Positions 19,276 to 51,654 of a stretch of DNA of 60,000 nucleotides are shown here, piece by piece (positions within the stretch are counted from its first letter, which is position 1; each line of letters begins with the position of its first letter). A model generated the notes under the pieces. It saw nothing but the letters and a program-made list of their open reading frames with translations. It had not been told where the DNA came from and did no database searches. The position numbers and the translations under genes are program-made. This DNA comes from Malacoraja senta (lineage: Eukaryota): contig CM075989.1 in assembly GCA_038087875.1 (NCBI GenBank), forward strand, positions 15,750,001 to 15,810,000. The letters run 5' to 3'.

Positions 19276-19440
19276 TTTAAGAAGGAACTGCAGATGCTGG
19301 AAAATCGAAGGTAGACAAAAATGCTGGAGAAACTCAGTGGGTGAGGCAGCATCTATGGAGCGAAGGAAACAGGCAACGTTCCGGGCTGAAACCCGAAGGG
19401 TTTCGGCCCGAAACGTTGCCTATTTCCTTTGCTCCATACC
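19276..19440. mobile_element. Partly palindromic Penelope-derived module (subfamily with CGCTCCATAGATG)
   Basis: Perfect 15-bp TSD TGGCATTTGTTAATG (19261-19275 / 19441-19455). Inverted arms around GGGCTGAAACCCGAAGGGTTTCGGCCC. Confidence 0.75.
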
Positions 19441-21832: not shown

Positions 21833-21918
21833 AGGGTTTCGGCCCGAAACGTTGCCTATTTCCTTCGCTCCATAGATGCTGCTGCACCCGCTGAGTTTCT
21901 CCAGCAATTTTGTCTACT
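21833..21918 (+). mobile_element. 5'-truncated Penelope-derived module
   Basis: AGGGTTTCGGCCCGAAACGTTGCCTATTTCCTTCGCTCCATAGATG...; ACTATAA duplicated at both junctions. Confidence 0.65.
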
Positions 21919-24900: not shown

Positions 24901-24959
24901 ATACAGATGTTTCTCTGCTGGTCTTTATTAATATAGTTCAGCTTAAAAATCAAATCCTG

Positions 24960-26078
24960 AATGTATCAATCCCAAACAACCTATCAAACCCCCCCACTTA
25001 TGTATCCAATTATCACTTGCTTGGCTTTCTACTGCCCCACCTCGCTTCCAGCTTTCTTCCCATCCCACCACTATCAGCCTGAAGAAGGGTCCCAATCGAA
25101 ATGTCATCTATCCACGATCTCCAGAGATGCTGCTTGTCCCGCTGAGTTACTCCGGCACTTTGTGTTCTTTACACACATTCTCTATATGGACACAAGCCAA
25201 TAGGGACATGTGCCAGATACCCCCTACATGTCACAGTGCACCGTGGCATCCTCCGCCCAGCACCACCCCTACCCCAACCCCTGTGCCTTCTGCACCCCAA
25301 CCCCATCACTATCTCTCAGTCTGTTGATTGCATTTGAAGACTGAGTCTGGAGTATTATCTTGAATGTATGATTAGGAACTAAGATGGTTCGATCCCCAAT
25401 GTTGGGAAGCTGGAAGGTAATAAAATGAAACCACAGATGCTGGTTTATACCAAAGATAGACACAAAGTGCTGGAGTAATTCAGCGGGTCAGGCAGCATCT
25501 CTGGAGAAAATGGATAGGTAATATTATGGGTTGGGACCCTTCTTCAAACCCGATCTGAAATGTCACCTATCTGTTGGAAAGATGGACCTTGCTTTCTTTG
25601 TGATTCTAATCTGTAAACCTCCTTTATATGTGTACGAGATTCTTGTTAAAGGGAACGTTAGCTGCTTTCCCCAAACTCAGGATCACTGCCAGATGACATT
25701 GACTGAAACCTGGCAGCTATCCTGGGCCTGTCGATACTGAGAAGTCTAATGAAATTACCTCATGCTACAAACTCCCTGCTTCATGTGATGGTGCTGCCGT
25801 ATTTTCACACCGTTCTTTTAGGTTTGGATGGAAAATTATGTACCCAAAAGTTCGAACATTGAACAGAGGGCCTGATTTGTTCTGGCCTTTTCTCGACCCC
25901 CCCCCCCCCCCCGCAACCCCACCATCCCACCCGCCATCTCTACTTTCAATCTGAAGAAGGGTCTCGACCTGAAACGTCACCTATTCCTTTTCTCCAGAGA
26001 GGCTACTTGACCCGTTGGGAGCTACTCCAGCATTTTGTGTCTATCTTCAGTATAAATCAGCATCTGCAGTTCCTTCCT
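24960..26078. mobile_element. Three Penelope-derived fragments (~24960-25170 +, ~25430-25572, ~25890-26078 +)
   Basis: Pyrimidine-rich UTR leading into CTGAAGAAGGGTC...GAAA and the shared CCAGAGA(T/G)GCT...TACTCC(A/G)GCA body. Confidence 0.6.
25951..25978 (+). ncRNA. Candidate minimal type I hammerhead ribozyme core
   Basis: CTGAAGA-A-GGGT(CTCG)ACCT-GAAAC-GTC: CUGANGA and GAAA boxes, 4-bp stem II, GUC cleavage triplet. Confidence 0.45.
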
Positions 26079-26084
26079 CAATAA

Positions 26085-26320
26085 AACAGTGCAGCACAGG
26101 AACAATGTTTGTGCCGAACATGATGCCAAGTTAAACTGATCTCATCTGCCTGTACATGATCCATATCCCGCTATTCCTTGCACTTCCATGTGCTTATCCA
26201 AAAGACTCTTCACCACCACCCCTGGCAGTGTGTTTCAGGCCCTGCACCACGCTCTGTGTAAAAAAAGAACTTGCCCTGCAAATCTCCATTAAACTTTCCC
26301 CCTCTCACCTTAGTGAGATC
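26085..26320 (-). mobile_element. CR1/HER1 LINE 3' fragment
   Basis: CATGATGCCAAG...CCATATCCC...CACCACCCCTGGCAG...TTTCCCCCTCTCACCTTA is the reverse complement of a CR1 3' end. Confidence 0.55.
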
Positions 26321-26739
26321 TAATTCCTCGTGACACATTTCTCTGCCCTGTACAAGTGTAGCTGCCACTTCAGTTGCAACAGCAGACTTCTCTCAGTCAA
26401 CAGATGGAATGTTTTCACCCAGCATCCTGTTACACTGAGGGGAGGAAGCTCTGTGCAGCTGATCTGGAAAATTGTCAGGAGACCTTGTGCAGTTTGAGAG
26501 CTGGGCCTCGCTGCACAGATGCTGTGCTTCCCAACCTTGGTTGGACGTGTTCCAGGAGCTTTCTTCACACAGTATTCCCCCTACCTCAGGGCACCTGGTC
26601 AGCCCGCAGTTCCAGCGTACACCCTGATTGCCATCGACTTTAGAGCTGAAATTAGGACACAGAATGTACACACTTTTGCTAACAGCTCGAAGACTTCACT
26701 GGTGCTCCTCCTGAGAACCTGTAACTCTTGGAGGCTCCA

Positions 26740-27670
26740 GGACAATCCCGGCTTGTGAGATATGGAGCCAGATACATTGGCGCGGACCAACAGTGATGAT
26801 AGGTGACAAATCATCCTCCACGATAATCCTCAACACTGGTGCACCACAAGGATGTGTTCTCAGCCCCCTTCTATACTCCTTACACACACTCATAACTGTG
26901 CAGCCAAATCAAACTCGATTTACAAATTTATAGACGAAAGAGCTATAGTGCACAGGATATCAAGTAATGTCGCGACAGAGTACAGGAAGGAGATTAAGAC
27001 CCTCATAACCTGGTGCTAAGACAACAACCTCTCCCTCAATGTCAGCAAGACAAAGGAGATTGTGATCGAAATCAGGAAGCCTTTTTGCCTCCGAAGTAGA
27101 GATAGTTGATAGCTTCAAGTTGTTAGGAGTATATATTTGTCTTGGACCAGCCAATGGCCAAAAAAGCAGATCAATGGCTTTACTTCTTTAGAAGGCTTAG
27201 GAAGTTCAGCATGTCCCCAACAACCCTCGCCAACGTCATAGAAAGTATTTTATTGCGATGCGTCACAGCGTGGTTTGGGAACAGCTGCAACCAGGGCTGT
27301 AAGAAATTGCAGAGAGTTGTGGACGCAACCCAGTCCATCACACAAACCAACCACCCTTCCATTGACACCATCTACATTTCAAGCTGCCTCGGCGAGTTCA
27401 CTCTCTGCTGTCACTCCCCCTTCTCCTTTCTCCCCTCAGGCAAGAGGTACAGATGTTTGAGCTCCCATCTATCTCATTGGAGACCCTCAGACTTTCATTG
27501 GACTTTACTGGACTTTATCTTGCAATAAATATTATTTCCCTCATCCTGTATCTGTACACTGTTCATGGCTTGAATGTAATCATGTATAGTCTTTTTGCTG
27601 ACTGGATAGCATGCAATAAAAAAAGCTTTTCACTGTACCTTGTTACACGAGACAATAATAAACTAAACTA
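26740..27670 (+). mobile_element. Rex1/Babar-type LINE, decayed RT and 3' end
   Basis: Translates IILNTGAPQGCVLSPLLYSL, WC.DNNLSLNVSKTKEIVI, LYFFRRLRKFSMS and KKLQRVV, with frameshifts and stops; ends in an AATAAACTAAAC tail. Confidence 0.75.
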
Positions 27671-27778
27671 CCCTCCAAGGTTCTATCTAGTTTCACAAAT
27701 TTAATTAATTGCTGTTAGTTCTGTCTGCCCTTTAGTAAGGCCACCAGAGGCTTCAGAGCTCATTCAGCCTGAATTAGG

Positions 27779-28087
27779 ATGGCACGGTGGCATAGTGGTA
27801 GAGTTGCTGCTTTACAGCGCCAGACCCAGGTTCGATCCTGACTACGGGTGCTGTCTGAACGGAGTTTGTACGTTCTCCCTGTGACCGCGTAGGTTTTCTC
27901 CGAGATTTTCGGTTCCCTCCCACACTCCAAAGACGTTGAGGTTTGTCGGTTAATTGGCTTGGTATAAATGTAAATTGTCGCTAGTGTGTGTAGGGTTGTG
28001 TTAATGTGCGGGGATCGGTGCGGACTCGGTGGGCCGAGGGGCCTGTTTCCAAGCTGTATGTCTAAACTAAACTAAACTAAACTAAAC
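27779..28087 (+). mobile_element. HE1 (V-SINE) tRNA-derived SINE, full length
   Basis: A box TGGCATAGTGG, B box GGTTCGATCC, V-domain GGAGTTTGTACGTTCTCCCTGTGACCGCGT, CR1-like tail GGGCCTGTTTCC and (CTAAA)n. Confidence 0.8.
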
Positions 28088-30769
28088 GCCCAGCCATGTT
28101 CTCCAGAAATACTACCTGACCTGCTGAGTTATTCTAGCACTTTGTGTCCTTTTGTATATTAACCAGCATCTGCAGTTCTTTGTTTCTTTACTCTTCCCAG
28201 TGTTGGGCTATGAAAGCAGTCTGCCTTCTGTGTCCCTGATTTGCTCAGTAACAGGGGCAGTACCTGAGGAAGATGTCCGTCTATTGGGCAACCTATCTGA
28301 AGTAAGAATCAACAAGTGGGACTTGCTACGGGTTTCCCCATGGGTCTGAAGCCAGGCGTACCAGTGAAAATATTCCCAGAAGACTTCCCCTTTAGCTACA
28401 GTGCAGTCCGCTTTTAATTAACGATCCATTAAAAGGGCAATTTCTTTCCGAGATTGAGCCAGAGACCAATAAACCACTCATTTCTATTTCTTTATCTTCC
28501 TTCACTCACCAAATGGCGTCAAAACACAGAAATAGAATGCGTTGAGTAATTACTGTGCTTTAGAACATTATATAATAGGTATCCCAATCTACCAAGCTTT
28601 GACAAAGGCATCCGTGTAGAAGACAAATCAAGCATGATCTAATTAGACCTAAATGAAAGGAGAATCTTGCACAACAAAAGCACAAACAGATGGAATAACT
28701 GCTGCCTTGGTTGCGTTTAAAGGGCCTGGTCATCATAAACATTCACAAAGCTATCCGAACCCGGAGATGGAGTTACAACCTTGTAACATATACTTTATGG
28801 CAGCTGTTATTATTTATAATGTATACAACCTGTGTATCTTCAAAAATAAATGTAAACCTCGAGTACCGGAAGTCTTTCAGCTTTCAAACTATGCTCACTC
28901 TTTCTCACATAACATCTGCAAAAATGGTATTCTGCAAATTTATAATATTTAACAATAATGGACCTCTTGTGGGTTTGCTTATGTTTGGCCTTCTAAGCCT
29001 TAATAACAGCCATTCCTCCCACTTCCTGCATAGTTTCATGTCTTCTTCTTTTGGCAAAGGTCTTTCCTTCTTTGTTCCCTGAACCACACTCAGTAGGGGA
29101 TTGGTGTGCCCAAGGGTATTTTTTGCAAACAGTCTCATTCTCATCCACAACCCTGCCTCCATCTCTTCACTGTTCAAAACTGCTCACAAAGATAGTCCCC
29201 TGTCTATCCTTCTAGCATGGAATTACGTAGAACATATAGTTGGAAAACAGACCATTCAGCCCAACCAGCCCATGTTGGTGGTTAAGCCCCACTCAAGCTT
29301 CAGCTTCATCTAACTTATTAACTCAACGCACTGCGGGAGGAGGTGGTGGAATCAGATACAATCACTATATTTAAGAGGCATTTTGACAAATTCTTAAATA
29401 GACAAGGCTTAGAACAATACAGTCTTAATGAAGATGAGCGCAAAGGTCAGCATGGATGTAACGGGCTGAAGGGCCTGTTTCTGTGCCATATGATTCTATG
29501 GCTATTACCTTCCTAATGCACGCTAATCGTTATATTATTTCATTATTAATGCAGTAACAGCCTTGACTCTTGACACCTTGAGCTACATATCCTCAACCTC
29601 TTTGCTCCTTTCTGATTTTGTGGTAGCTATCATGTATTGGTGGCCCCTTCACATGGAGATACTTTTGTGAAGGAGACATCTTTGGCCAGATGAAGAAATG
29701 TCTTCCACAGGTTAGTTGACTTTGCCCCTGGACCTCCGTAATGGAAGAGTGTCACGTTGGAAGAGGACCCATTGTTACATTTTACTTACACCAGGCAACT
29801 GAAGGCGGGAAGCTGGCTGACCATTTGGGGATCATAAATAATGGGGCAGAGGCACAGCTGGAGGCCAGATGTTCAGAGGCCCATTAGGATACGTTGCGCG
29901 GTTTATGAGAGTTGCTGGAGCTAAGTTTCTATGCCTTTCTCCGGTTGCTCTCCTTCTGCCATCATCAGCTCATCTTGTCCATGAGCTCACCCCACTGACT
30001 CCATTCCCACTGACTGCTGACGACCAACTCCGCTTCCCCTTCACCCATCAGCCCAACATGAAGAGTGCTCCCTGGTAATCCGGCACTCTCCCCCAGCCCC
30101 ACCTCTCTCCACACAAACATTGCCCCTTTTCCCTGCTATCAACACCTACCTCCGTAACAACCTTGCTCTGTATGGTTCTTAGTCATTGTTAACTCCCATA
30201 TTCCTGCCTCTTTTCCAACAAAACACTGCATTGCCCAAGCACAGCAGTGTGACAGTGTACATCACCCCCTCCTCCAATACTCTTTGCACAGTACTACCTC
30301 CCCTTGCCTTCCTGCGTGTGCATCTCGATGGGCTCACTTACACCTGGTCCCATCTGCTGGCAGTCAAAGCATTTCCAGTAATTGCTTCTTTCCCTGATCT
30401 GACATTAATCCCAAGGGGTTCCCTCAATGTTTCCCTTCATTCATACAGACTACATGAGTGCAGAGACATGGAAGCAAGGGAATGCATTTTAGTGACTGGC
30501 AGAGGTGTTTTGAATTCTTCCTAAGAATCTCTGTTTCATCTTACCTAGAATGAAAAACTGGGAGCAGGAGAGCTTCACATTTCACCCAGATAATTTATGT
30601 TGCTTCCCCTAGAACACTGAGCCACGTGCACCTTTCTAACGTGGAAATTACATATTAAGTTGATCTTAAGCACCTGTGCTTTGCACAGATTAGATGGCAT
30701 ACAACCATTGATTACTAGGCCTGAGCATTTGTAGATGCAATGCTCAATCGTTGGTCAATTGTTTTCCAA

Positions 30770-31000
30770 ACAACAGATGCATATCCAATGGGAACAACAT
30801 CGAATGCCATTATATCCAATAGCCCAATACCATCCAATCCATTGTCATTCAATCCAATGCCACAGTATCCCATGCCATCCAATCCAATGCCCATCCAATC
30901 CAATGCCCATCCAAAGACAATGCCAACTAGCAGCACCCAATTCAACACCACTCAGTTGTACGGCATGCAATTCAACTCTGTCCCAGCCAACACTCATCCA
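30770..31000 (+). repeat. Degenerate pentamer repeat (CCAAT/CCATC/ATGCC)
   Basis: Directly visible 5-nt periodicity, e.g. ATCCAATCCAATGCCCATCCAATCCAATGCCCATCC. Confidence 0.7.
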
Positions 31001-33046
31001 ATGATATCATTAGGGACTGCAGGACCTGCTGCCATATACAATGACAAAAATTTCCGGTCATATGTACAATTTGCAATTCTAAATCTCCAAACACTAAGGA
31101 CTAGACGCTGCTGTAGATCAGCAAGGAGGAATGACTTAAAGCCACCCCGGTGTTCTTTCGACATTTGTCTCTTTGCTTCTGACAACTACAGCCTTTATTC
31201 CGCAGCATATTTCTAACATTGCTGTATATTTTCTGATTTATAGTGGCCCCCCCCCCCACATAATTCACCACACACCTGAGTGGTGCCCCCCTCTGTCAGT
31301 GTGACGAGTCCATGCAGTAATTGGTCCACTCCTGGTGTGGGACAAGCCTTATCATGTGTCTATACACTGTAAAAGGATCGATGTATTGTCTTTCTGCTGA
31401 CTGGTTAGCACACAACAAAAAGCTTTTCACCTCGGTACACGTGGCAATAAACTAAACTGAACAGAAGCTGTGTTGACTATCATGGATCGTGGCCACCCAA
31501 CCTCTGTCTTCCCACCACATGCTCCATGGTTGCCATGGCGAGAGGTTCTTTAAGGCTCTGACAAAACAAGACATGGTTGTCAGGGTCCATGACACAGCAG
31601 TCTTGGCCTTCAACAAATGTGCAGGTAAGGTTGTTAAGAGTGAACCAGGTGAAAAATCACGCTAGCCATTTGTTACGTCAAGTGTTTTTACCAACTTGCT
31701 ATTTTCAGCCAGGTGGTCCAACTGGACATTTGTGCATTCATTTAGCTGTGCAAAAAATAGTGAACTTGGCAATAGTGTGACACGTTAGACCCTCCTGCTG
31801 TTGGTGCAGGGATAAACTGTCCCCCCATGATCCTGATCGTCTGAAAGTTGCTTCGATATTTGTGGAGCAAATTGTGTAAGGAGATATATGTGCTGGGAAA
31901 TTGAACACATGGGAGTGGGTTTCTTTACGTGTAAGTCACTTTACGTTGCTTGGTGGACATTGGGAAATTGGATTGGGAGCTGCCATGCACGACTCCCCTA
32001 GTTTTACACGAATCCCGCACCAATCTTGCAGCCAACAGTGTCATCACCTGTGCAGCAGCTATTTCTGTGATTACTGAACTACCTTGGTGTGTTAACCTAC
32101 CGCCTGCATTTAATTAGCACAAAGAAAGCAAGGAACAAACCGCAGGGCAGATTGGCAGAGAGACGTGAATTAAGGAGTCGCCAGTGTGTGCCATGACTTC
32201 ACTCACAGCTTCGATCACAATATTCAGTCCCATGGGCAAGCACCATTGTCGGCTCCCTCAATGATCGCAGCATAGCCAGACTGATCGAGTCATACGCTGC
32301 AGAAGTTCATGTCCGTAAATGATAGGAGCAGAATTGAACCATTCGGCCCATCAAGTCTACTCCGCCATTCAATCGTGGCTGATCTATCTTTCCCTCCCAA
32401 CCCCATTCTCCTGCTTTCTCCCCATAACCCCTGACACCCGTACTAATCAGGGCAGGGTCCCTCACAGCACAGGGCTCTTTCAGTGCATTAAAATGCTGCT
32501 TTCAATGTAAATTTGCAGTTTTGCAAACGGTTTCCAGAGAGGGCTTTAGTGTCACTCAGTAGATGTTTAACACCAGAGAAGGGTGAAGCTCAATCTCTAC
32601 GCATTAGACTTTCAAAATCTGACGTGAGGTGATTTGAGACAAGGCCTCTTAATAGGTTCCAGCTTTTATGTACAGGATAGAGCACAACCTGCAGCAGATT
32701 ACGTGTCTGAAGCCCTGAAGACCTTATATCATAAAGAACATTGCATTCAATGGTTCAATGGCACCTTATTGTCATGTGTACCTAAGTACAGTGTAACGTT
32801 TTTTGCATACAGTTCAGGGACATCCAGAAGGAGGAACAGTCCATTTAATTCATTGGGGTCATTGTGGCATTTAACATAATATGGGTAATCTATTATCTAA
32901 CTTTGTACTCTCTCCCTAAGATCAGGTCCCTTCATTGCCTTGATTTCTAAAGAAAGCAGCAATGATAAGCTTCTGACAATTTATTTAAAGGAAAGGTTAC
33001 AGAGGCATTTGCCTAATCCAACTTGTGGATTTACAAAATACTCTGG

Positions 33047-33602
33047 GTTTAGTTTAGTGTAATTGAGAGATATAGCATGGAACCAGGCCCTTCAGCCCGT
33101 CGAGTCCATGCTCACCATCGATCACCATTCACACTGGTTACATGTTATTCCACTTTCACATCCACACACTAGGGGCAATTTTACAGAGGCCAATTAACAC
33201 TACAAATCACATGTCTTTGGGATATGGGAAACTGGATCATCCAGAGGAAATCCATGCAATCACAGGGACAGCATGAGGTCAGGGTTGCACCCGGGTCTCT
33301 GGCGTGTGAGGTAGAGCTGCTGCCACACAGTGCCAAACCTGTTCCAGGGTTCAATCCTGACCTTGGGTGCTGTCTGTGTGGAGTTTGCATGTTTTCCCTG
33401 TGAACACGTTGATTTCCTCTGGGTGCTGCGATTTCCTCCCACATCCCAAAGGCGTGTGGCTTTGTAGGTTAATTGGCCTGTATAAAATTGCCCCATGCGT
33501 CTAGAGTGGATGTGTAAGTGGGATAACTTGTGTAAACTGGTGATCGATGTTCAACATGGACTTATGGGCCGAAGAGCCTGTTTTTCCACTCTGCATTTCT
33601 AA
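33047..33602. mobile_element. Two HE1 SINEs fused head-to-head (- copy ~33047-33310, + copy ~33309-33602)
   Basis: (TTTAG)n and CAGGCCCTTCAGCCC at the left end; V-domain GTGTGGAGTTTGCATGTTTTCCCTGTG and GGGCCGAAGAGCCTGTTT at the right. Confidence 0.65.
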
Positions 33603-35908
33603 ATGACAGCTAAAAGCTGCACCAGTTGTATCATACATGGTTGTATCAATAACCAATGTGAATGAATCATTCCCACTTAGTATTATCAGTGCGATTGAAA
33701 AGGTGCGTTATAAAAGTATTCGGTAATAAAAGCAATGGTTGCTTCTGATAGAGATCTCTCCCACTCACTACCTGCATGTCAATGTAAACACATCCAAGTC
33801 TTCCTAACACTTCAGAAGTGGAGGAGGCTGATACTTGGAGCTGGAAAACAGAGAGCTGACAAACTCCAGTCTATGTTGGCTATCAGCTGGAAAGGCTGGT
33901 TACTGCCACATGGCCCAACATTAAGTGATGTTAGATCTGATCATTTCAACAGGAATGATATTAAATGTACTTCACTTGGGAATAGGGCAGCCAGCACCTG
34001 TTTGATTCCACTTACTATTCAGTCCTCTCTTATTTTACTCCGACCTCTCGTCTCCCAAGGATGGTAAATCACGACCCACAAGTGCCCACAGCTCAACCTC
34101 TTGCAGCCCAAGAGCTCCAGGTCACCCGTCCACATGGTGAGCCCCTTCCCTTCAGCTAATCATTTGCACATTGCATCAGCATTGAATGGGAGGTGGATAC
34201 AACAGATATTCCGCAATGTTACTGATCGTTTTTACACAAAATGAATTACAACTTGAGGGGAATGGCTTTTGTTTTGGCAGAAATCCTGGCATCCTGCTTT
34301 GCCAACTTGAATTTAGCTCAGAGGGAGTGGATGCCTGACTCTAGGCAGAAAACAACTTTAAATCAATTACTTAGGGACATATCCCACTTGCCAAACCTTC
34401 ATGCGACTATTTTTCAAACCATTTATTCCTCAAATGTTGAAAATCTAGTTTGAGCAAGGTTTCAACACCTCCCATTGACCCACTTCAACATGTCCGTTGA
34501 TTTATTTGATATTGTTTTAAAGTTATCACAGTTCATTGTGTGATCAGGCAATGAGATCTTCACATGATGTGTGCTGAAGGGTGTAACAGTTTCATTGTTT
34601 GATACATGGGCTGCAATAGACATTTCCAAACATGACATCAATAAAAACGCAATAAAATCAAACTGAGTTTTTTGATTTAACTGGCACAGACTCGTCAGCT
34701 TTGACATGAATATATTAATGAGCAGCGTTTAGACTTTGTGCCAGAATATGTCAGGAACTGAAAGCTGCAGACACGAGGCTGTTTCTCAACACAGCTCAAA
34801 CCATTTTATAGATGAGGTAGTAAAAGATCAGGGGCAGCAAGGGGGAAAAGATACTGACAAAAACAATGCAGAACGGCTTTTAAAGATTTGTTAATATTGA
34901 TCCATTACAAAAAACAATGCTATACTTTACGCAACATATCTTGAATTACTGTCAGAACTTGAAATATAGTGCAGGATGATGTAAATGGGTAACTGTGCAT
35001 AGATGGGTTATCAACTTCTGCATCACCAGAGGCCATTCAGCCCATTGCAAATGTACCTGTTCTTCGAATCTTTTAACTGTCCAGCCCTATCCTTAACTTC
35101 ATCCATCACTGGAAGGACACAAAGTGCTGGAGTAACTCAGTGGGTCAGGCGGCATCTCTGGAGAACACGGATAGGTTTTGCAAACTGGCATCTGCCGTTT
35201 CACATCAAGAATTGATGTTAGAAGTGACACATGTAGCTACTTGCGGCTGTCTAATAACCACATAGATTGGCTTTCAGTCGACACACATCAGAAGGTTGAA
35301 TGGCTGTGTTGGTGCAACATTTGAAAATTGAAGCTCTAGTTGTACGCCAGCATTGTGAAGAGATTGTACAAGGGCAAAGAGATGCATAACTCGGATGATG
35401 TGTAGCACAGGGTTCAGCTTGGAGCCGACCACAGAAGCATGCATCGTATGCCCTTGAATTTCAGAGGCTGAAGGGCAATTTATTTAAGGTCCCTGCAAGT
35501 GAGAGAAAAAATTGATAAAGTGAACTTCAAGAGGCTATTTCCTCTCGAAGGGTTATCTAGATAATGGGTTATCACAAGATAATGGCCAAAATCTTAAGTT
35601 TCGAGGCTGGAAGCAATATTAAAAGGGGACTGGAAATGTGGACTCACGCCTGCCTCAAGGCAGAGAGAGGCACTGAGTCACAGACTGAGATTGACCGTTT
35701 TTTAGACTTTAATAGACGTTAGAGATACAGAGCGGAAACAGGCCCTTTGGCTCATCGGGTTTGCACTGACCAGCAATCACGCCATGCACTACCACTATCC
35801 TACGCAATAGGGCTCATTTACAATTTTTTTATGGAAGCCAATTAATCTGCAAACCTGCACGTCTTTGGAATGTGGGAGGAAACAAGTGCACCCAGAAAAA
35901 CCCCATGG

Positions 35909-36712
35909 TTTCAAAGGTTTCAAAGGTTTCAAATGTAGACAAAAATGCTGGAGAAACTCAGCGGGTGCGGCAGCATCTATGGAGCGAAGGAAATAGGCAA
36001 CGTTTCGGGCCGAAACCCTTCTTCAGACTTTTGTCTACCTTCGATTTTCCAGCATCTACAGTTCCTTCTTGATCAAAGGTTTCAAAGGTCTTTTATTGTC
36101 ACCTGTACCAATTAAGGTACAGTGATATGCGAATTACCATACAGCCACACTAAAAAATCAACAAGACACACAACTACATAAAAGTTAACATAAACATCCA
36201 CCACAACTGATTCCCCACATTCCTCTGTGATGGAAGGCAATAAAGTCTAATCTTCTTCCCTCATTTTTCTCCCGTGGTTGGGGCAGTTGAACCATCGGTC
36301 GGGGTGATCGAAGCTCCCGCAGCCGGCGGTCGAAGTCTCCACGACGGGGCGATTGAAGCTCCCGCGTCGGGGCGGTCGAAACTCCTACGGCATGGAGCTT
36401 CTGAAGTCGGTCTCTAACCAGAGACCGCGATGTTAAAGTCCCGCAGGCTCCCGTGGTGGAGATCTCGAAGTCGGTCTCCAACAAAGGCCGCCAACTCCTC
36501 GATGTTAGGCTGCAGTGAGGACAGAGATACGATACAGAAAAAAATCACATCTCCGTCGAGGTAAGAGATTAGAAAACGTTTCCCCTAACACCCTCCCCCA
36601 CATAAAAACAAGCTAAAGAACATTAAAAACATACATTTAACACATACTAAAGAAACAATGAAGAAGAAAGGGACAGACAGACTGTTGGCGAGGCAGCCAT
36701 TGCTGGTGCCAC
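35909..36712 (-). mobile_element. CpG-rich non-autonomous retroelement with a Rex/RTE-like tail and (TTTGAAACC)n terminal repeats
   Basis: The + strand shows (TTCAAAGGT)n, then CTTTTATTGTCAC, then a CpG-rich body with repeated GAAGCTCCCGC / GAAGTCGGTCTC units. Confidence 0.55.
35999..36026 (-). ncRNA. Candidate minimal type I hammerhead ribozyme core (best-preserved copy) in the Penelope-derived module 35934-36071
   Basis: Minus strand: CTGAAGA-A-GGGT(TTCG)GCCC-GAAACGTT; stem II capped by a UUCG tetraloop. Confidence 0.5.
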
Positions 36713-37334
36713 CTGGGAGATCGTAAAAACTTTGTACAAATAGCACCTGTAGTCAGGTTCGAACCCGGGTCTCTGGCGCTGTAAGGCAGCAACTCTACCA
36801 CTGTGCCATTGTGAATGGATATAATAAACTGGATATAATACAGCTAAAAGAAGTAATCAATGCATTTCACAAAGAAATAAGATGAAGGCCATAACCAAAA
36901 TGAGCCAGTGACAAATCTATTTCATGTTTCCTGTGCTTTATAGTTCAGTATTAGGTTGAATCATTCATCCTTGAGTGGATTTGACTCTGAAATCTCCTGT
37001 ATTGACTTCTTTACCCATGTTATACAGGCTAAGAGAACTGCCAGCCCATCCATTCACTGCTGGAGCAAGCAGAACCAGTTGGTTCTTCATTCAATTTGCA
37101 TTCATTGCATTAGTTAAATTATATGAGAGCTGGTTAAGTGGGTCAGAAGGTGGCGCCACACGCAAACTGAGCCACAAGACTTTCTCAGTAGTAAAGGAAT
37201 GGAGGTAGCTTCATACAAGGAGGAGCCAGGGTGGTCATGTTTCTCACTCACGGTTGTGGAGCCCTTGGACAATTAGGGTTTGTAATATTCCACAAGACTC
37301 TTACCGTATGCTCTTGTTGAGAATATGATAGATA

Positions 37335-37700
37335 TCAGCTGTGATGGGAATAGGTTGGAAATTTAATTATAATTGGAATGGGATTAATGTCCGTAGTTGT
37401 TGGGAATACAATGGATATATCTACATTGCTGGGAATGGGATGGATACCCGCTGTTGTTGGGAATGGGTCTGAAATTTGCTGTTGCTAGGAATGGGATGGT
37501 ATCCACTGTTACCGGGAATGTGATGGATATTTCCGGGGGGTTGGGAATGAGATGGATATCCACTGTGGCTGAGATTGCTGTGTATATTTGCAATGTGGGA
37601 ATAGGATAAATATCTGCTGAGTTGGGAATGGGGTGGATCCCTGGTCTGGTTGGGAATGCTGTGGATGTGGCTGGGAATGGCGTGGATATCTGCTGTGGCT
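37335..37700 (+). repeat. Degenerate minisatellite, ~28-30-bp unit (TGGGAATGGGATGGATATCC.CTG)
   Basis: About a dozen recurrences of GGGAAT...GGATAT...CTG. Confidence 0.75.
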
Positions 37701-38859
37701 GACGTCTGGCCACGTCAGCAATGATCCCATTTTCCTGATGGTTCCCTGCAGCCAGTGGAAGCACTGACGTATGTCAATGTGGCAGAATCTGTCCTGTTTT
37801 TAATCATCTTTACAAAGCGACTCCAGGGTTGCTAGGCATCCTGGAAAAAGACAAAAGAGAATGTACTGTGTTTAGATTAAATGTGTACTGCTGTTGGAAA
37901 TGCCACAATGCCGCCTTTTGTTTTGGTTTATTTTTATCCTTTTCCTGAACTACTAATTGAGCTTCCACTCTTGCTGCAGTGGTTACAATTCCCCCCTTTC
38001 CTTAAACCCCATTTCCACTTGGAATTGATGCCCAGAGACGGACGGAGGGCCAGATGGCATCAACTGGCGGCACTGCCCCTGGAAGGGAAAGACACACCCC
38101 TGGATCAAGCACCAACACAGATTCCCAGGCTCACACCCAGCAACACAGCAGGGTTTGGTTACACTATTCCACCACAATAAGAACGGAGCCGCACCACAGG
38201 CAGGACAATGCCTTCACCCTGACGACCACAACCATTCACATGTCGTGCCAAGGGATCGTTCCAGGATGACGTTGACCAAACTGCACAGAAGCACAAAGTA
38301 AGTTGTAGAGACGTGGTTCACGAAATCTAGCGACGCCTTCAGCTTGTCTCTGGGCAATGGGTGCCAGCGCCGCGGGGACCTTCTCACCCACACGTCTGGG
38401 ATACATGGATTGGGCCCATCCTCATTCTGCTCAGCAGGACCTACATCTGTGTCTGTCTGAGGAGAACCACTTCACAGCCAACAGAAAGCTTTTCCAGAAA
38501 TTCCATCCTGTTACAAAAATAACTTGTCCCCTTCCAGTAATATCTTAAGAGAGCTGTTAGAAGTTTCACTGACAACACAGGGACCAACATGGTTCGCATT
38601 TAACAGTGTCATTCTGGGAGGAAGGAGATCTTGTTGTATTCTGATGCCAGCTGTGCTGAAGGGGATGAGGTACAAGAGGGGCAATAATACAAGGATGACA
38701 GCCCAGCGTGAAGGTGTGGTACCGTACCTGATACAGAACCCAAACACAGCAGGTACTGAAGATTCATTACGTCCCCATGGTTTAATGAAGGCTGGGATAA
38801 TACCAGCGAACGCCTCAGCCAAACCAGATGCGTTGATCTCAGCCAGTGTAGGAATGGAG

Positions 38860-39050
38860 CACAGCAGCACAGCTGGAAGAACCACTGCCTCACCGCTCCA
38901 GCAACCCTTGTTCGATCCTGACCCCGGCCGCTGTCTGTGTGGAGTTTGCAAGTATTTCCCGTGACCGTGTAGGTTCACCCCTGGGTGCTCTGGTTTCCTC
39001 TCACATCCCAAAGACGTGTGAGTTAGGGGGTTAATTGGCTGCTGTCTGTT
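38860..39050 (+). mobile_element. Partial HE1 SINE
   Basis: GTTCGATCCTGAC B box and V-domain GTGTGGAGTTTGCA...GGTTTCCTCTCACATCCCAAAGACGTG. Confidence 0.6.
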
Positions 39051-40212
39051 AGGAGTCTGCCTGTGTCCAATGGCTGGATGTGGGGAGGCTGAGGGGAATG
39101 TGGTGAGGATAAAGTGGATGAGTGCAGGCTGAGTGCAGTGGGATCTCGATGTTGGCTCAAAGCTCCCATATTCTATGTTCCTAATGTTTTAGAGGCACGA
39201 CTCTGAGGGGCGGGGGTGAGCGACTGATGGGGACCAGTTGCAAACACAATCAAGTGGAGAGGGAGGGTTGGGACACGTTGGGAGCTCACGGCTGTGCTGC
39301 CGCAGAGGACAAGCTATTGAGTGGACCTCGAGAATGGCTCCCATTACCAGAGTTGGTGAACAGCTCATGCAGATCTGCCGTAAGTAGCGAGAAGAGTTCA
39401 CTGAGAAGCAGAAACATTTATGACACAGAAGAAGGTTATTTGGTGTCTGTGTTGGTTGAGAGCTGCACAGATCGATCGAACCTTCCTGAAGTGGCTCTGT
39501 GGGCCTGCAGGGTAGAACTCCTCGAGTCCACGGACAAACACTTCTTCAGGCAGTTTCCAGATCCTCACTACCCTCTTTCTCTCATCTCCTGTCTAATCCT
39601 TTTATCAAGTGCTTTTGATTTATGCCCCTGGTTTTAGACCACCTTCCTAAATTCTCATCCCTCATAATTCTATCACCTTAATTAAACCTCCCTTCAGCCT
39701 TCTCAGTTCCAGGGAAAACAACCCTAGCTTATTCAATCTTTCCTTATGGTTAAAGTTTTCCAGTCTTGGCAACTTTGTTATATATCATTTCTGCACCCTC
39801 TCCAATGCAATCACAGCTTTCCTATAATGTGTTTACACAGTACAGGTAATTCTGCTACAACTTGTGTCTCCATAACACTAATTGGATTTAATAAGATTGA
39901 TGATTTAGTGAACACTATTTGAATTATAAGGGCTGAAATTTTTTTAACTGCAGTAACAAAAATAAACGTATAGCTATTAAAAAGTCTTTTATTTTTGCAA
40001 ATTCTGTGGGGAAATATAACTTTGCTATAGTGAGTCTGAAACTCTCTCACCCCTAACCCCCTTTTCCCCATTGACATTATTTGTTTTTATAATATAATTT
40101 TCTATAATGTGAGCTTTGTTAGGAATGCAACTATCGTGTTCTAGCAGAACTGCCTGGACTCAAAATGTGGTATTGTGTGTAATTTTAGTATTATCTACTT
40201 GCATTTGTTTTT

Positions 40213-40515
40213 TTAGTTTAGTTTAGGAATATAGCATGGAAAAAGGTCCTTGAGCCCATCGAGTCTATGTTGCCTGTCGATCACCCCTTCACACTAGTTC
40301 TATTTTATTCCACTTTCTCAGCCAGTTACCTACACACTAGGGGGCAAGTTATAGAGACCAATTAACTCACAAACCTGCATGTCTTTGGGATGCAGGGGGA
40401 AACCCAGGGAGAACCCTGCGCAAACCCCACGCAGACAGCACCCAAGGACATGATCGAACACCGGTCTCTGGCGCTGTGAGGCAGCAGCACTATCAGCTGT
40501 GCCACTGTGCTGCCC
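40213..40515 (-). mobile_element. HE1 SINE
   Basis: (TTTAG)n tail, then ACCTGCATGTCTTTGGGA and GGTCTCTGGCGCTGTGAGGCAGCAGC head. Confidence 0.7.
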
Positions 40516-42889
40516 TTTAGTCCTGGACTCCGAGTCACTTTCTCAGCACATCACCTTACAAAGGGAAGCAATCCAATCCATTTTCAACATTTTTATTGAC
40601 CTATCTGAAGTTTTCTATCTGGCGTTTTCAGCCTTAATGTCAACCGTTTGGCCAGTGTTTGCATCAGCAGACCATGATAGAAGTTATTCTTCTTCTCACT
40701 CCTTTTCGAGCTTGTACAGACACAGAGTTGGACATTGGAACTTTGATTTTGTTCTTCTCATTGCTTTGTAAATATTGATTGTAATGTCCAATTGTTTGAT
40801 AATTTCGATTTTGTTAATATTAATGTCTTTAATGTCTTTACTTGTTCGGAATAAATAAATAAATAAATAAATAAATAAAATGCATCAACTTCCTTGTGCA
40901 CAGTAAACTTTGATCAGGTTTGTTATATATATTACATACAATCTCGCATTAGGCATGCGGGCTGTCTTTGCAAGAATGGGCTGCAGTGTTAGTGAGTTGT
41001 ACATGATTTAATGACAAGCACGGGAGTGATGGTTCGCACGCATGTTGTGTGTGGGTGCCAGTCTATGTCAGGGAACCTCTCTGCTATTTGAGGATATATG
41101 GAGCAATTTGAAAGAATGTTATACTTCCCAGTTGTATTTTACTTTGTTGGATTGTGTGGCTTTCATAGAAATTGCACTAGAGGCTATTATTTCTAGGCCA
41201 TAGTGCCATAACATCATAGTTTGGGTATTGTTGATAGAGGCTTAGTTTTCTCCTGATACAGTCTAGCTGGATCATATGACTAATGTTAAAAAAAACTAGA
41301 CACCATCTTTCAAGCAATTCTCATAGCTTCTATAATATCAGTCACAGGAAGACAATTAGCTCAGTCTCTGCCTGAACAAAGAGGGGATTCCTGGCCCTTC
41401 TAGTCAAATAGTCTCAGAATAAAATGACTGTAATAAGGAAAAAAAGTCCTGGCCAAGGAAAGCGTAGATCTTTACCCAGAGAGTGTGAGTTATCAGTTAT
41501 TAGGCACATTATTGACTGAGATCTTTGGGCGATCAGACAGGAAAATGGATTTGAGATATTAGATTAGGATTAGGATTCGCCAGGATCTCATTGGATGGTC
41601 AAGATGTTTTACATTATTCCTGCTGCTATTTCTTATGTTTTTCAAGATGCTACAGGAATTAGTTGTCATGTCAACAAAGTATCGGTTTAACATCTCGTCC
41701 AAAGGATAGCACCTCCCAAGGCTCTGTACTCTCATAAAACTGGTATTATGAGCCAGTTTAAATTATATACCCATATCGTTGGAACGAGTCGTGAACACAC
41801 AACATTCTGACTAAGAGACAGGAGTGATACCATTGGAATATTTTTTTCCGTTCTTTCCAAGGGACATCTGGGCAACATTCTAATCCACTAGGCCAAAACT
41901 GCCCAGTGAAAATCTCTCGGCAGATTGGTCCATTGATAGTGGATAGTGGTCCAGGGGCCATGTGTCACAGTGGTTGAAACCCTGTGGCAACTTCCAGCAG
42001 ACCTTGATCCAGCTGTTACAATCATCAGATTGTAGGGATGAAGGGAGCGATTTTTTTTTTTGAGCGGAAAAACCTTAGTGTAAACATTTTGTTAATACAA
42101 AACAGGAGTTGCACTATGTGCTTGGACCTGTTGTAATTTTCCAGCAAAATTGTTTGTGGGAAATATGTTGTCCTTAAGTGTCTGAGTTGAGCTGACCAGC
42201 AAATAAACCTTCATTAAGGAATATAGGTTTGTCCGTGACCAGCGCATGTGTGGGAAAAGTGACCCAGTCTGGACTGATTTGCTCATACACTAAGAGTTTG
42301 CTTTTCCTCTCAGCAGTATGGAAACCGTGCCAGATTTTTCTGCAGATGTAAGCAGGAGCAGATAATGAGCTCCGGAGAAAAACAACACCAGTTGAGCTGG
42401 GCTTTGGCCAAGGCTCATTTGGCCTGTGGTCTCAAGTTGGGGACCAATCGTGCTTTCTTGCTTTCTGTGGCCTCCAATATCTCTCCCAGGAGTTAAGGAA
42501 AACAAAATGATGTGGTACAATTACAGCTTCCCAATATGCCAGCTTGGACAATGAGATGTGAGGGGAAGATAATAAAAATGCTATTTTTGCTTTACTTTAT
42601 AAGAGAAAAACAATGATTAAATCAAGACAATATGAATAACAGCTGCAGCAGGTTACCATTGATGTTTAAAGAGCGAAATGAGAAGAAAGTAATTTAGTAT
42701 TTCCGATAAGATCACTAAAGCAACAGTAAAGAGAAACAGTGGAAATTGTACAAGCAAGACACCAGCTGATACCCAACATGTGATTATTTTACCATTAACT
42801 TATTCACTCACTGAAGTGATACACATTATTCATGGGAAATGGAAACAGTTTTCTACAGTTCTGAGCGCTTATAATATGACTCGATGAAA

Positions 42890-43913
42890 TCTATATATTA
42901 CTAAAACTCTTTGTTTGTTTGTTTGTTTGTATGTGTGCGTGTGCGTGATATTTCAAAACCCCGCCAAAATGGTGCACGATAGCGCTACAATTTTTGGCCC
43001 ACCTTACTCACCATTGTACTTGGGTGTAAATGAAACAAGTTTAGTTCGGATTAATGTTATATTTTACAAGTTATTGAAATTTTAAACTTTACAAAAATCA
43101 CTTTTCAACCACTTTTCCACTTGCCCTGCCCATCAGCCGCGTTCGACGTCACAATGACGTAACAATGGGATCCCGAATCCCATTTAAAAAATCACAATAA
43201 AAAAAAAAAAACGGGTTTAAATCAAATTCTTCTGATTTCATTAACATCTAACATTGCGTTTAGGTTATTTTTTTTTAAATTGCGATTTTCATTGTGGAGG
43301 GGTGGGATAGGGGGGAGGTTTCATTTTAAAAATAAACATCGCGTTTTTCCATTGTAGGGGGTGGGATAGGGGGAGATGAGCAGTGGGGAAGCAGGGTGAT
43401 AGAGGGAGAGGAGGGGGTAGGGAGGGGAGAGGGAGGGGAAAGTGGGGGAGGTGAGGAGGGAGAATGGGGAGGAGGGGGGATAGAGGGAGAGGGCAGTGGG
43501 GGAGGTGAGGAGGGAGAGTGGGGGTGGGATAATGGGGGAGGTGAGGAGTAGGGGAGCAGGAGGATAGAGGGAGAGGAGGGGGTAGGGAGGGGAGAGGGGT
43601 TATGGAGGGAGGGAGGGAGTGACTGAGGGTAAGGGAAAGGAGAGGGAGGGAGAGGTGAGGAAGGGAGTGGGGTAGGGGAGGAGGAGGGGAAAAAAGAGGG
43701 AGGGTGAAGAGGAGGGGGAGGGAGTGCTGGGGAGGAGGGGCAACGGAGGAGGATAGGGGTAGGAAGAGGGTGGCGAGGCGCAGTTGCGGGTGGGTTGCCG
43801 TGACTCGCATCACAACGGGAAGCCCTCAGCCGCGCCTGCGCAGTTGTGGGCTATGGGTATGTGGTGGAATTTTGCCTTGGGGGACGGGCCCAACGGGTCC
43901 GCACCTGGTCTAG
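42890..43913 (+). mobile_element. Non-autonomous Helitron (1024 bp) with an internal G-rich minisatellite
   Basis: 5' A|TCTATATATTACTAAAA; 3' GC-rich hairpin CGGGCCC-AAC-GGGTCCG (43885-43901) 8 nt upstream of terminal CTAG|T. Inserted between A and T with no TSD. Confidence 0.8.
43355..43780 (+). repeat. G-rich purine minisatellite (GGGATAGAGGGAGAGG / GGGGAGGTGAGGAG units)
   Basis: Directly visible; many GGG runs with short spacers. Confidence 0.85.
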
Positions 43914-44017
43914 TGTAATAATAATGCTTCCCATTTAGAACAGTAAAGGGTGGGGTACTATGTCCTTGCCAATGGAAAATTGCTGTCTGGTGAAATTAAT
44001 CTTCACTAATGGAGAGA

Positions 44018-44303
44018 TTAGTTTAGTTTAGCTTAGTTTAGAGATATAGCATGGAAACAAACCCTTCGGCCCACTGAGTCCATGCTCGCCTGTACACTAG
44101 CACGAGCCTACACACTAGGGAAAATTTACAGAAGCCAATTAACCTACACGCCTGTGGGAGGAAACCGGAGAACCTGGAGAAAACCCACAAGGTCGCAGGG
44201 AGAACGTACACACTCCATACAGACAGCACCCGTAGTCATGATCGAACCTGGGTCTCTGGCGTTGTAAGGCAGCAGCTCTACCGTTGCGCCACCGTGCTGC
44301 CCC
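44018..44303 (-). mobile_element. HE1 SINE, near full length
   Basis: (TTTAG)n tail; head is the reverse complement of GCACGGTGGCGCAACGGTAGAGCTGCTGCC...GGTTCGATC. Confidence 0.8.
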
Positions 44304-44889
44304 AAAATGAAGTGTTAAAGGCTTGACCATGTAGTTCAGGAAAAAGTCCAGTGAATTTACAGAGACTGCCAAGGTAAGATTCTCTTCACTGTTCTCGTGC
44401 GCTGTACACAAATATGAAGACCTGCTGCCCCAGTTCCCCGTATCCCTGGAATATCAATCCTTCTTTCCCTATTTTTATGCTGCTGCTACAAATGCAATGG
44501 AACATCTCACGATATCTCACCATATCTCCTTCTTTTATTCACGTGCTTACACATTACCTGACATAAGAGGCGCTAAAATATGCCAACCGTACATTAGTGG
44601 GTTGTGAAAAAGAATGTCACTGTGCTGTGCATACAGGACAATAAAGAATCATTGAACCATTGAACGTCAAAAAGACACAAAGTGTTGGAATAACTCAGCC
44701 GGTCAGGTCGCATCTCTGGAGAACATGGATAGAGACGCCGCTTGACCAGCTGCTGAATTACTCCAGTGCTGTTTGTCTTTTATTTCTGTAAACCAGCACC
44801 TTGTTTCTCTCTCTTTCTCTCCTCTCTACCACATTATCATGCTTGCTGACTCTTCCCCTCAGAATACACACTATCCTAAGATACTTTAT

Positions 44890-45720
44890 CCATTGTCAGA
44901 GCTACAACTACACGGTAAATGGTAGCGAATTGAGGAATGCAGTTGAACAGAGGGATCTAGGAATAACTGTGCATAGTTCCCTGAAGGTGGAATCTCATGT
45001 AGATAGGGTGGTAAAGAAAGCTTTTGGTGTGCTGGCCTTTATAAATCAGAGCATTGAATATAGAAGTTGGGATGTAATGTTAAAATTGTACAAGGCATTG
45101 GTGAGGCCAATTCTGGAGTATGGAGTACAATTTTGGTCGCCTAATTATAGGAAGGATGTCAACAAAATAGAGAGAGTACAGAGGAGATTTACTAGAATGT
45201 TGTCTGGGTTTCAGCAACTAAGTTACAGAGAAAGGTTGAACAAGTTAGGTCTTTATTCTTTGGAGCGCAGAAGGTTAAGAGGGGACTTGATAGAGGTCTT
45301 TAAAATTATGAGCGGGTTAGACAGAGTGGACGTGGATAAGCTTTTCCCATTGAGAGTAGGGAAGATTCAAACAAGGGGACATGACTTGAGAATTAAGGGA
45401 CAGAAGTTTAGGGGGAACATTAGGGGGAGCTTCTTTACTCATTGAGTGGTAGCTGTGTGGAATGAGCTTCCAGTGGAAGTGGTGGAGGCAGGTTCGATGT
45501 TATCCTTTAAAAATAGATTGGATGGGTATATGGACGGGAATGGAATGGAGGGTTATGGTCTGAGTGCAGGTAGATGGGACTAGGGGGAAGTATTTATTTT
45601 TAATTTAAAAATAAATAAATAAATAAATAAAATTAAAAAAAATTTAAATGTTCGGCACGGACTTGAAGGGCCGAGATGGCCTGTTTCCGTGCTGTTATGG
45701 TTATATGGTTATATGGTTAT
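44890..45720 (+). mobile_element. Relatively young 5'-truncated CR1/HER1 LINE (ORF2 C-terminal part, premature stop)
   Basis: ORF 44801-45445 encodes QRDLGITVHSSLK...LYKALVRPILEYGVQFWSP...IERVQRRFTRM...SLERRRLRGDLIEVFKI...TRGH, the classic CR1 ORF2 C-terminus. Ends in an (ATGGTTAT)n tail. Confidence 0.9.
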
Positions 45721-46034
45721 CTGGGCACAGTAGCCACTGGCACCATGAAGATGAGACTCAATCAGAGAGAACTCAATTAGAAAGGGAACTTAACACCAAC
45801 CTGACGATTCCTGACACTGATGAATTAATCAGATCTTGGCACCAATGATATATATAGGTGGTTAGTCATGTTTGAAGTGGCCAAGAACAATTTTGCCAAT
45901 TTACTCTCTCATTTTCTGCTTAACAGATTTCAAAAGGACAATTTTAAATAAGTATCTCTGCTGCCTCTAAGCCCCAATGTTGGTTACATTCAATCATTTC
46001 AAACAAGGTGGTTCATAACTATAATTTAACAAGA

Positions 46035-46344
46035 TGACACGGTGACGCAGTGGTAGAGTTGCTGCCTTACAGCGCCAGAGACCCGGGTTCGATCCTGACT
46101 ACGGGTGCTGTCTGTGCGGAATTTGTACGTGCTCCCCGTGACCGCGTGGGTTTTCTCCGGGTGCTCCGGATTCCTCCCACAAATCAAAGACGTGCAGGTT
46201 TGTAGGTTAATTGGCTTTGTTAAAAAAAATGTATATTGTCCCTAGTGTGTAGGATAGTGCTGTAGTGTATGGGGATCGCTGGTCGGCACGGACTCTGTGC
46301 GCCGAAGGACATGTTTCCGCGCTGTATCTCTAAACTAAACTAAA
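46035..46344 (+). mobile_element. HE1 SINE, full length
   Basis: ACGGTGACGCAGTGGTAGAG...GGGTTCGATCC, V-domain, (CTAAA)n tail. Confidence 0.85.
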
Positions 46345-46932
46345 TTCAAAATATTTTTAAAATATCGAGCACATGAGAGTGGAATATGCTCTCTCTGATA
46401 ATACTGGGATCATTGTTGGGATTGTAACTGAAAACTGATAGACAGATCATTGGGAAATTAATGTTGGAGTTGCCTGTTTAAACACTTTATCTTTTTGCCA
46501 CACATAGTGATAAATGCCAGATTTTCCGTATCAACATCATTTTAATGGTAGAGGTAACATTTATTTTAATGAATTATGATCAGTACTAAAATAAGCCCAA
46601 CAGGAAAAAAGTAGGATCATAGTTCATTATAATTCAGCACTGAAATACTGACTTTTAAAACACATTTATTTTCATTAGTAGAAATGCATTTGCATGCAGA
46701 TGCAGTTAGGGGGTGAGATGCATGACAAACAGACAGACCGATACAGAGACGCACACATATGCATACACAGATGTTGCACAGACATACATGACAAACACAT
46801 ATGGTGCACACACACACACATACACATAAGATAGACACAAAATGCTGAACTCAGCGGGACAGGCAACATCTCTGGAGAGAAGGAATGGGTGACATTTCGG
46901 GTCGAGACTGAAGAAGGGTCTCCAGAGATGCT

Positions 46933-47159
46933 TATCGAATTATTCTTATAATGAGGCTCGTACAACGACGTAATCGGAGTCTGTCTTTATTTAGCAACTC
47001 ACTACAGCAGCTGCCTCGTGCTGCATCCCCGGGCCCTGCTGCTAGGCCTCTCTCCGGTTACGCCCACAGCCCCACCTTCAGGCCGGATGCTGTCACTGCA
47101 GCCTGACCACTGGCAGCAGAATAAAGGCATTCCTTACTCTATTATTCCATAATACCACA
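46933..47159 (-). repeat. 3' LTR
   Basis: Direct repeat of 51302-51528 with one mismatch (47037 T vs 51406 G). Minus-strand AATAAA at 46986-46991. Confidence 0.95.
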
Positions 47160-47172
47160 TCTCCCTTTCTTT
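47160..47172 (-). other. Polypurine tract
   Basis: AAAGAAAGGGAGA immediately 5' of the 3' LTR on the minus strand. Confidence 0.9.
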
Positions 47173-47270
47173 GAGAACAAATGGTGGACTACCTTTGTCT
47201 CTGCAGGTCTTAAGGGGTTTATTCTGCCCTTTTGCTGAAAGACCTGTCCCTGATCAAATAAATCAATAAA

Positions 47271-51206: not shown

Positions 51207-51283
51207 ATCTGCCAGCTCATCTCACCTTTCTCCGCCAAAACGATACACTTTCCTCTTCTTCTTTTTTTTTTTCGCTTACAAGT

Positions 51284-51301
51284 ATCCCGTTTCTGACACC
51301 A
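51284..51301 (-). other. Primer-binding site, tRNA-Leu type
   Basis: TGGTGTCAGAAACGGGAT abuts the 5' LTR; 16/18 complementary to the recalled tRNA-Leu 3' end (...ATCCCACTTCTGACACCA). Confidence 0.8.
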
Positions 51302-51528
51302 TATCGAATTATTCTTATAATGAGGCTCGTACAACGACGTAATCGGAGTCTGTCTTTATTTAGCAACTCACTACAGCAGCTGCCTCGTGCTGCATCCCCG
51401 GGCCCGGCTGCTAGGCCTCTCTCCGGTTACGCCCACAGCCCCACCTTCAGGCCGGATGCTGTCACTGCAGCCTGACCACTGGCAGCAGAATAAAGGCATT
51501 CCTTACTCTATTATTCCATAATACCACA
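51302..51528 (-). repeat. 5' LTR
   Basis: TGTGGTATT...AATTCGATA on the minus strand; 226/227 identical to the 3' LTR. Confidence 0.95.
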
Positions 51529-51654
51529 ATGCTGTCTGTCCCACTGAGTTACTCCAGCATTTTGTGTCTATCTTCGGTTTAAACCAGCATCTGCAGTTCC
51601 ATCCCACACACATAAGGGAAGCTTACAAGCACACTAAAAACATACTAAAATAAT

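Follow-up and report, generated by a model that had tools for sequence, protein, structure and literature searches.

Hammerhead repeats in the window

The window analysed here is a 60,000-nt stretch of the Malacoraja senta genome (GCA_038087875.1, CM075989.1, positions 15,750,001 to 15,810,000). At 35999..36026 on its minus strand lies a minimal type I hammerhead core, with C3 at 36026 and H17 at 35999, which by direct reading is CTGAAGA-A-GGGT(TTCG)GCCC-GAAA-CGTT (28 nt). It has a 4-bp stem II, an extra A, a palindromic helix III and a 2-bp helix I, and its predicted cut falls between 35999 and 35998 on the same strand. The core is part of a forward arm at 35935..36029 (-), a young-subfamily copy of the leader of a Penelope-like element (PLE) that begins 3 nt before the core and stops at the nearer (short) of the two 3' end points described below (compare L082:1525-1620). 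Joined head-to-head to this arm is an inverted, 5'-truncated partner at 36029..36070 (+), which carries the ~37-nt PLE tail (at L082:1621-1657). The pair lies within a 14-nt flanking duplication (left copy 36073..36086, right copy 35920..35933), a possible target-site duplication whose status is uncertain because it falls within a local 9-nt repeat.

A profile made from the window's own copies gave 31 matches, spanning 3446..57734, and none in the reversed window, in agreement with a preliminary description of the sequence that had reported dispersed repeats with a common body. The cores it cited at 36026-35999 (-), 25951 and 18338 are present by direct reading, and its degenerate copies were found where it placed them, to within 1 nt. 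It had also held that many copies retain the core. Some do, but all catalytic bases together with a paired stem II are found in only 2 of the 31 (36026 and 18338), and of the two only the 36026 copy has the 2-bp helix I. The 18338 copy (18337..18428, +), likewise of the young subfamily, has a TTTG loop and no helix I, and the tail-bearing copy at 25950..26079 (+) has C11.1>T.

Other copies show further arrangements. An older one at 25030..25167 (+, start approximate) continues upstream into the element's pyrimidine-rich 3' UTR, one at 35114..35176 (-) begins exactly at the first base past the predicted cut, and one at 3851..3942 (-) comes from a related family, older and less common, in which about 5 bp of helix I could form. 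Head-to-head pairs are joined at the core (5962..6177, comprising 5962-6052 - and 6049-6177 +) or in stem II (19290..19438, comprising 19311-19394 - with a tail and 19395-19438 +), and an older pair lies at 7080..7240. The other matches are at 3446, 3677, 5615, 10653, 10953, 11727, 14206, 15519, 15952, 21832, 24029, 24078, 25455, 28087, 44671, 44731, 46830, 51528 and 57662. No PLE coding remnant was found within the window.

The window also holds other elements. One is an LTR retrotransposon at 46933-51528, whose two 227-nt repeats are identical and whose minus strand carries an open gag-pol-like frame of 1,316 aa (47271-51221; Ty3/Gypsy-like, as judged by eye); it sits inside a hammerhead module with an apparent 5-nt target duplication. 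Dispersed repeats that are probably SINE or LINE ends lie at 27822-27968, 33341-33487, 36671-36813, 44154-44296, 46079-46225 and 56383-56525, and at 33047, 35702, 40206, 44021, 54497, 56221 and 57832; a LINE-like coding remnant lies at 44792-45445.

Abundance and structure of the core

The very high copy number suggested earlier is real: an exact 27-nt core pattern matched 42,315 times in the 1.94-Gb genome, and a control pattern never. In a 1.46-Mb sample, made up of the window and 140 evenly spaced stretches of 10 kb each, we counted 623 fragments, and none in the reversed sequence, which extrapolates from this non-random sample to ~8 x 10^5 genome-wide. Strictly intact cores, in which every catalytic base is in place and stem II is paired, made up 65 of the 623, and 50 of these also had the 2-bp helix I. 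By extrapolation the genome would hold about 9 x 10^4 intact cores, compared with about 4,000-9,000 reported for coelacanth and Xenopus (Cervera & de la Peña 2014, PMC4209133), a paper whose main text does not contain the word "shark".

The identification as a minimal type I hammerhead is supported. The CUGANGA and GAAA boxes and U16.1-H17 are present in all abundant subfamily consensuses, and a hammerhead descriptor matched 90 times in the 1.46 Mb and never in its reverse, with the extra base in 89 of the 90. Helix I was 2 bp long in 54 of 86 descriptor matches and at least 3 bp in 8; the motif is thus not the canonical type I hammerhead, which has a 6-bp helix I and loop 1-loop 2 contacts. 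An Rfam scan returned 7 weak matches at E<=5, none of them to a hammerhead family.

Stem II had been said to vary while keeping its pairing. Apart from loop changes, the copies show a single one-sided change, U-A to U.G at the subfamily level (208 vs 45 of 285 copies), and no two-sided compensatory pair; otherwise only scattered decay departs from the G-C or U-A of the four pairs. Of the three stem II variants given in that description, two occur in the window solely within broken or truncated copies (11045 and 15973).

These features are those reported for the minimal hammerheads of metazoan PLEs (PMC4209133): location in the pLTR, an extra base between 9 and 10.1, G10.1-C11.1 and a palindromic 15.2-16.2. 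Here the palindrome gives a self-duplex of -5.5 to -5.7 kcal/mol. The extra A had earlier been likened to that of a viroid hammerhead; the base is there, and the parallel is unneeded, as the extra base is a general feature of metazoan PLE hammerheads (PMC4209133). Helix I has 2 bp, as in D. virilis, whereas helix II has 4 bp here compared with 7-8 bp in Schistosoma and 6 bp in D. virilis (PMC4209133).

The parent Penelope-like element

The proposed Penelope origin is supported by L082, L085 and L093, three among 15 loci chosen for their long frames: in each, a copy of the module stands on either side of a full RT + GIY-YIG ORF, in the order module, start codon, ORF, module. In L082 the module occupies 1528-1619, its tail extends to about 1657 and the ATG is at 1692; the 1,212-aa ORF ends at 5330, and a second module, without tail, follows at 5446-5536. 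In Pfam the ORF matched RVT_1 (E 5.9e-4) and GIY-YIG (E 1.3e-3), both below cut-off, and in Atlas it scored 0.98 to RT/GIY-YIG/HTH_animal clusters. The RT motif is YINDC in the L082 ORF and YIDDC in an adjacent partial copy. A 110-aa piece of the PLE had 24,750 candidate matches, and all 150 that were scored were 100% identical. The parent element is young and resident in the same genome; the L082 ORF is open and at most a candidate for activity, YINDC being a point against it.

In the 1.46-Mb sample the module follows 29 of 37 PLE C-termini (protein identity 42-98%) within 520 nt, and sequence encoding a GIY-YIG C-terminus lies upstream of several cores. Seven subfamilies have distinct upstream sequences and 3' UTRs and converge from about -4 of the core onward (C3 = 0). 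On this evidence the module forms the pLTR end and the 5' leader in a PLE lineage that has gone through several waves of activity, with 3-18% divergence from cluster consensus. Similar repeats occur in skates and rays, and the element may already have a name in Repbase or Dfam. A partial literature search of titles and abstracts returned no paper on the repeat in cartilaginous fishes, nor on the pile-up of 5' ends described below.

The linker CNRKRCNTC in P0001 (C-x4-C-x2-C) fits the CX2-5CxxC pattern between RT and EN and points to an element of Neptune/Nematis type. As described for Neptune-clade EN+ PLEs (Craig et al., 10.1101/2021.04.23.441226), it has a C-terminal GIY-YIG, the cysteine linker, partial tandems, an inverted 5'-truncated partner and an optional tail. 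Unlike them, it has a long Pro-rich N-terminal region within its 1,212-aa ORF.

A second, unrelated PLE family was seen at L011-L035 (e.g. L017, L025 and L012:1165), with 759-aa frames containing RVT_1 and GIY-YIG. It forms tandem arrays on small contigs and near the ends of C14 and C17, and at L017 continues into a telomere-like tandem repeat. In 4 of its 25 loci there is another type of hammerhead-like core, whose helix I could reach 5 bp and lies at an unusual distance from GAAA.

Ends of the copies

We mapped the ends of the copies relative to C3. The 3' part was reached by 562 of the 623 fragments, of which 11 from one tandem array (L156) were removed, leaving 551. Among 349 well-preserved copies, 3' ends fell at +85..100 in 179, at +122..135 in 123 and elsewhere in 47. 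The two modes lie about 37 nt apart and differ by the presence of the optional 30-40-nt PLE tail.

The 5' ends were concentrated at -7..0, where 199 of 317 copies at risk end (0.079 per nt, about 13x background). Rates elsewhere were mostly 0.005-0.009 per nt (0.006 in the body, 0.005-0.007 upstream of the peak), with a climb through the first half of the core before the peak. Genome-wide, about 11% and 16% of the 42,315 cores begin at -3 and -2, respectively, and flanks past about -6 are random in sequence. An apparent 5'-end peak at G12 was discarded, being due to the single array in L156 (G000:C2:195000001-195010000). This tandem array of a ~67-nt module piece starts at G12, has no CUGA box and is a minisatellite born from a pLTR. 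At G000:C1:3870000-4030000, modules of the young subfamily recur regularly on the two strands, about 1-2.5 kb apart; this array is probably a satellite derived from a PLE inverted unit.

Inverted partners accompanied 64 of 272 copies by a strict count, or 218 of 551 by a loose and uncalibrated one, and the ends of the two arms often coincide. Duplications of at least 8 nt flank 30 of 109 truncated copies, compared with 5 of 109 shuffled ones. Close pairs on opposite strands amid mostly single copies are also what was described for PLE hammerheads in PMC4209133, where most motifs are single copies and are ascribed to truncated PLEs.

Is the core a working ribozyme?

Comparing 9/10 subfamily consensus rows, we found variation in 0 of 13 catalytic columns and in 23 of the 67 body columns (p=0.015) after post hoc exclusion of single-row CpG decay; when such decay is counted, the figures are 2 of 13 and 24 of 67 (p=0.20). 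Conservation is high in the body as well, and RT binding or promoter function could be what preserves the core. Non-CpG decay per copy was 6.1% at catalytic positions and 8.3% in the body, a difference that is unusable as evidence of conservation because the copies were chosen by their core match. Helices I and II showed one-sided changes only, among sequences that are little diverged.

In recent subfamilies the core may no longer be a working ribozyme, being kept instead as a promoter or RT-binding leader and sequestered by alternative pairings; we regard this as a substantial possibility, short of even. Helix I is just 2 bp, and ViennaRNA gave it a probability of at most 0.06. The probability of stem II was 0.00-0.06 in four younger subfamilies and 0.34-0.95 in two older ones; in the young subfamilies the CUGAAGAAGG strand is predicted to pair with downstream pyrimidines or with the tail, and in the youngest a predicted 6-bp hairpin occupies GAAA. 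For L082:1530-1657 the predicted structure has long-range pairing of the CUGAAGAAGG strand with the tail and of the body with the tail (z-score only -1.18), which is predicted to keep the core inaccessible as long as the tail is neither bound nor copied. The rarer older family, by comparison, could form about 5 bp of helix I; its members (window 3851-3942 (-), L054:5767-5854, L120:5014-5107, L061:7204-7291) include some that have U at position 7 and could form a longer helix I. This suggests that the abundant subfamilies shortened helix I.

Against a loss of function, every change between abundant subfamilies within the 28-nt motif is of a tolerated kind (in the loop, U-A to U.G, H17 C/U and 1.1 A/G), as are those in the other organisms described below, except for a CpG-type G>A near 10%. 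The hammerhead of the Anolis carolinensis Poseidon element PAc likewise requires protein for cleavage (Frangieh et al. 2024, PMC11167929).

The 5' ends of the copies pile up upstream of the cut and the core is kept, so the templates were mostly uncleaved, which is also what a non-catalytic leader would give. In the 1.46-Mb sample no peak was seen at the cleavage site, with 12 of 468 ends at +27..30 (0.0064 per nt). For the 53,025 copies of the young subfamilies, patterns that fix the exact start, normalised for flank composition, gave 817 starts at the base directly following the predicted cut (180 matches), 214 at two bases before (66 matches), and 334, 108, 201 and 505 at 1, 2, 4 and 5 bases after (48, 15, 44 and 154 matches). 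The cut position is thus the highest of six, at 1.6-8x its neighbours and about 1/80-1.5% of young copies, with controls that vary 5-fold among themselves. By eye, in 100 listed of the 180 matches, about 1/4-1/2 of the cut-site junctions resemble microhomology joins to the element. This small excess, a weak and confounded hint, counts against a dead core and is a lead on cleavage in vivo rather than evidence of it. A non-ribozyme leader is compatible with the explanation of origin that we favour below and differs from it on catalysis.

Nature of the 5' boundary

The pile-up of 5' ends would mark an RNA end, most likely the start of transcription in the pLTR. No excess of a cap-derived G was seen at -3 (26 G among 100 listed starts, by eye, vs 25.8% expected), and an apparent excess of G before -2, counted by eye as 21 among the first 50 starts listed, was rejected as a cap signal, being largely self-derived microhomology. 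With ends that cover about 8 nt and lack a cap G, the transcription start is no more than a candidate. In contigs of four public runs from four other organisms we found the same module with the same rise of cover at its 5' boundary; variation upstream inflates the rise, and the runs used, eight in all, consist of contigs of uncertain kind that have no bearing on starts, ends or expression.

The spread of the ends and the absent cap G would also suit an RT stop or nuclease trimming at the edge of a protein-bound or folded leader, or use of a polypyrimidine-CAG 3' splice site, readings that together we consider rather unlikely. A pyrimidine tract and YAG precede the core in all seven subfamilies, but the boundary also fits TCAGT, which we take to be an initiator-like motif. 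In D. virilis an intron is reported to end at helix I (PMC4209133); here, in contrast, 111 truncated copies shared no upstream exon of the kind a spliced leader would leave, and no GT..AG joint was seen among the 15 of 57 joints listed.

Origin of the short copies

We consider it likely that the repeat is the pLTR and 5' leader of an autonomous PLE, and that its short copies are stubs left by abortive insertions off mostly uncleaved RNA. In this scheme RT would start at two internal sites in the leader, matching the 3' ends ~37 nt apart, and would run off after 95-135 nt at a transcript 5' end just upstream of the core. Extension on one or on both target strands would give single stubs or stubs with inverted partners, and longer copies would require a read-through tandem template. 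The hammerhead is predicted to be a weak, dimer- or protein-dependent ribozyme, relevant if at all in full-element transcripts, and the dispersed stubs would decay as fossils. Short and long copies of each subfamily are similarly diverged, as expected of truncated products of an autonomous element.

The two 3' points are read as RT start sites, and both target strands as primers, by analogy with PAc, in which the tail lies between two RT start sites, cleavage by the hammerhead is protein-assisted and uncleaved RNA was the main template in vitro (PMC11167929). The skate element would resemble PAc in having two 3' points that bound a 30-40-nt tail, extension of both target strands, an uncleaved template and a hammerhead at the pLTR-ORF junction. 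It differs in the position of the hammerhead and of the two 3' end points, all of them upstream of the start codon, and in having an ORF with a Cys linker of Neptune/Nematis type (PMC11167929).

The preliminary description had instead seen non-autonomous, retrozyme-like units. Like non-LTR retrozymes (PMC7229834; Li et al., 10.64898/2026.07.22.740005), the stubs are short, non-coding, hammerhead-bearing, related to a PLE pLTR and present in high copy. Retrozymes are reported as 150-450-bp tandem repeats with a hammerhead in each unit and a circRNA (same sources), and their hammerhead is canonical (Cervera & de la Peña 2020, PMC7229834), whereas here the stubs are about 95-135 bp, dispersed singly or head-to-head, and carry a minimal hammerhead. 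Among 350 copies with a core, just 43 have a neighbour on the same strand within 500 nt, and the retrozyme-like classification is not supported.

A separate SINE- or retrozyme-like family of ~95-135 nt, transcribed and remobilised by the PLE protein, would account for the defined 5' boundary with flanking duplications, for the numbers by which short copies exceed coding ones (7 of 169 core-bearing matches in the first 460 kb have upstream coding sequence) and for the one local tandem array of a 67-nt piece (L156), and secondary mobilisation is conceivable because the stubs hold the likely RT start sites; it is nevertheless very unlikely, for no sequence is shared upstream of the boundary, same-strand neighbours are scarce, the hammerhead is non-canonical, and short copies occur in all six subfamilies compared, about as diverged as the long ones. 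Among these six we found no lineage independent of the autonomous element, in a comparison confined to the 1.46-Mb sample and in which the short copies of two same-body subfamilies are indistinguishable.

Implications

The kind of hammerhead that PLEs carry, and single copies that derive from truncated PLEs, were known already; the mapping of the ends is the part worth following. As just 65 of the 623 fragments are intact, a count of hammerheads in a genome of this sort is for the most part a tally of dead stubs. The PLE hammerhead cleaves poorly in vitro, and the one element that has been reconstituted inserted without need for cleavage and gave no reads ending at the cut. The stubs could be a fossil record of the RNA ends of a PLE in the germ line, with the minor peak reflecting cleavage in vivo that is probably protein-dependent, a suggestion that we put forward tentatively and think unlikely on balance. 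If it is true, the main peak would mark the 5' end of the RNA at the edge of the ribozyme with nucleotide resolution, and a minimal hammerhead with a 2-bp helix I would cleave in vivo, probably only when the element's protein unfolds the leader that hides the core. The abundant failed insertions of a young element would provide numbers large enough to test cleavage in vivo statistically.
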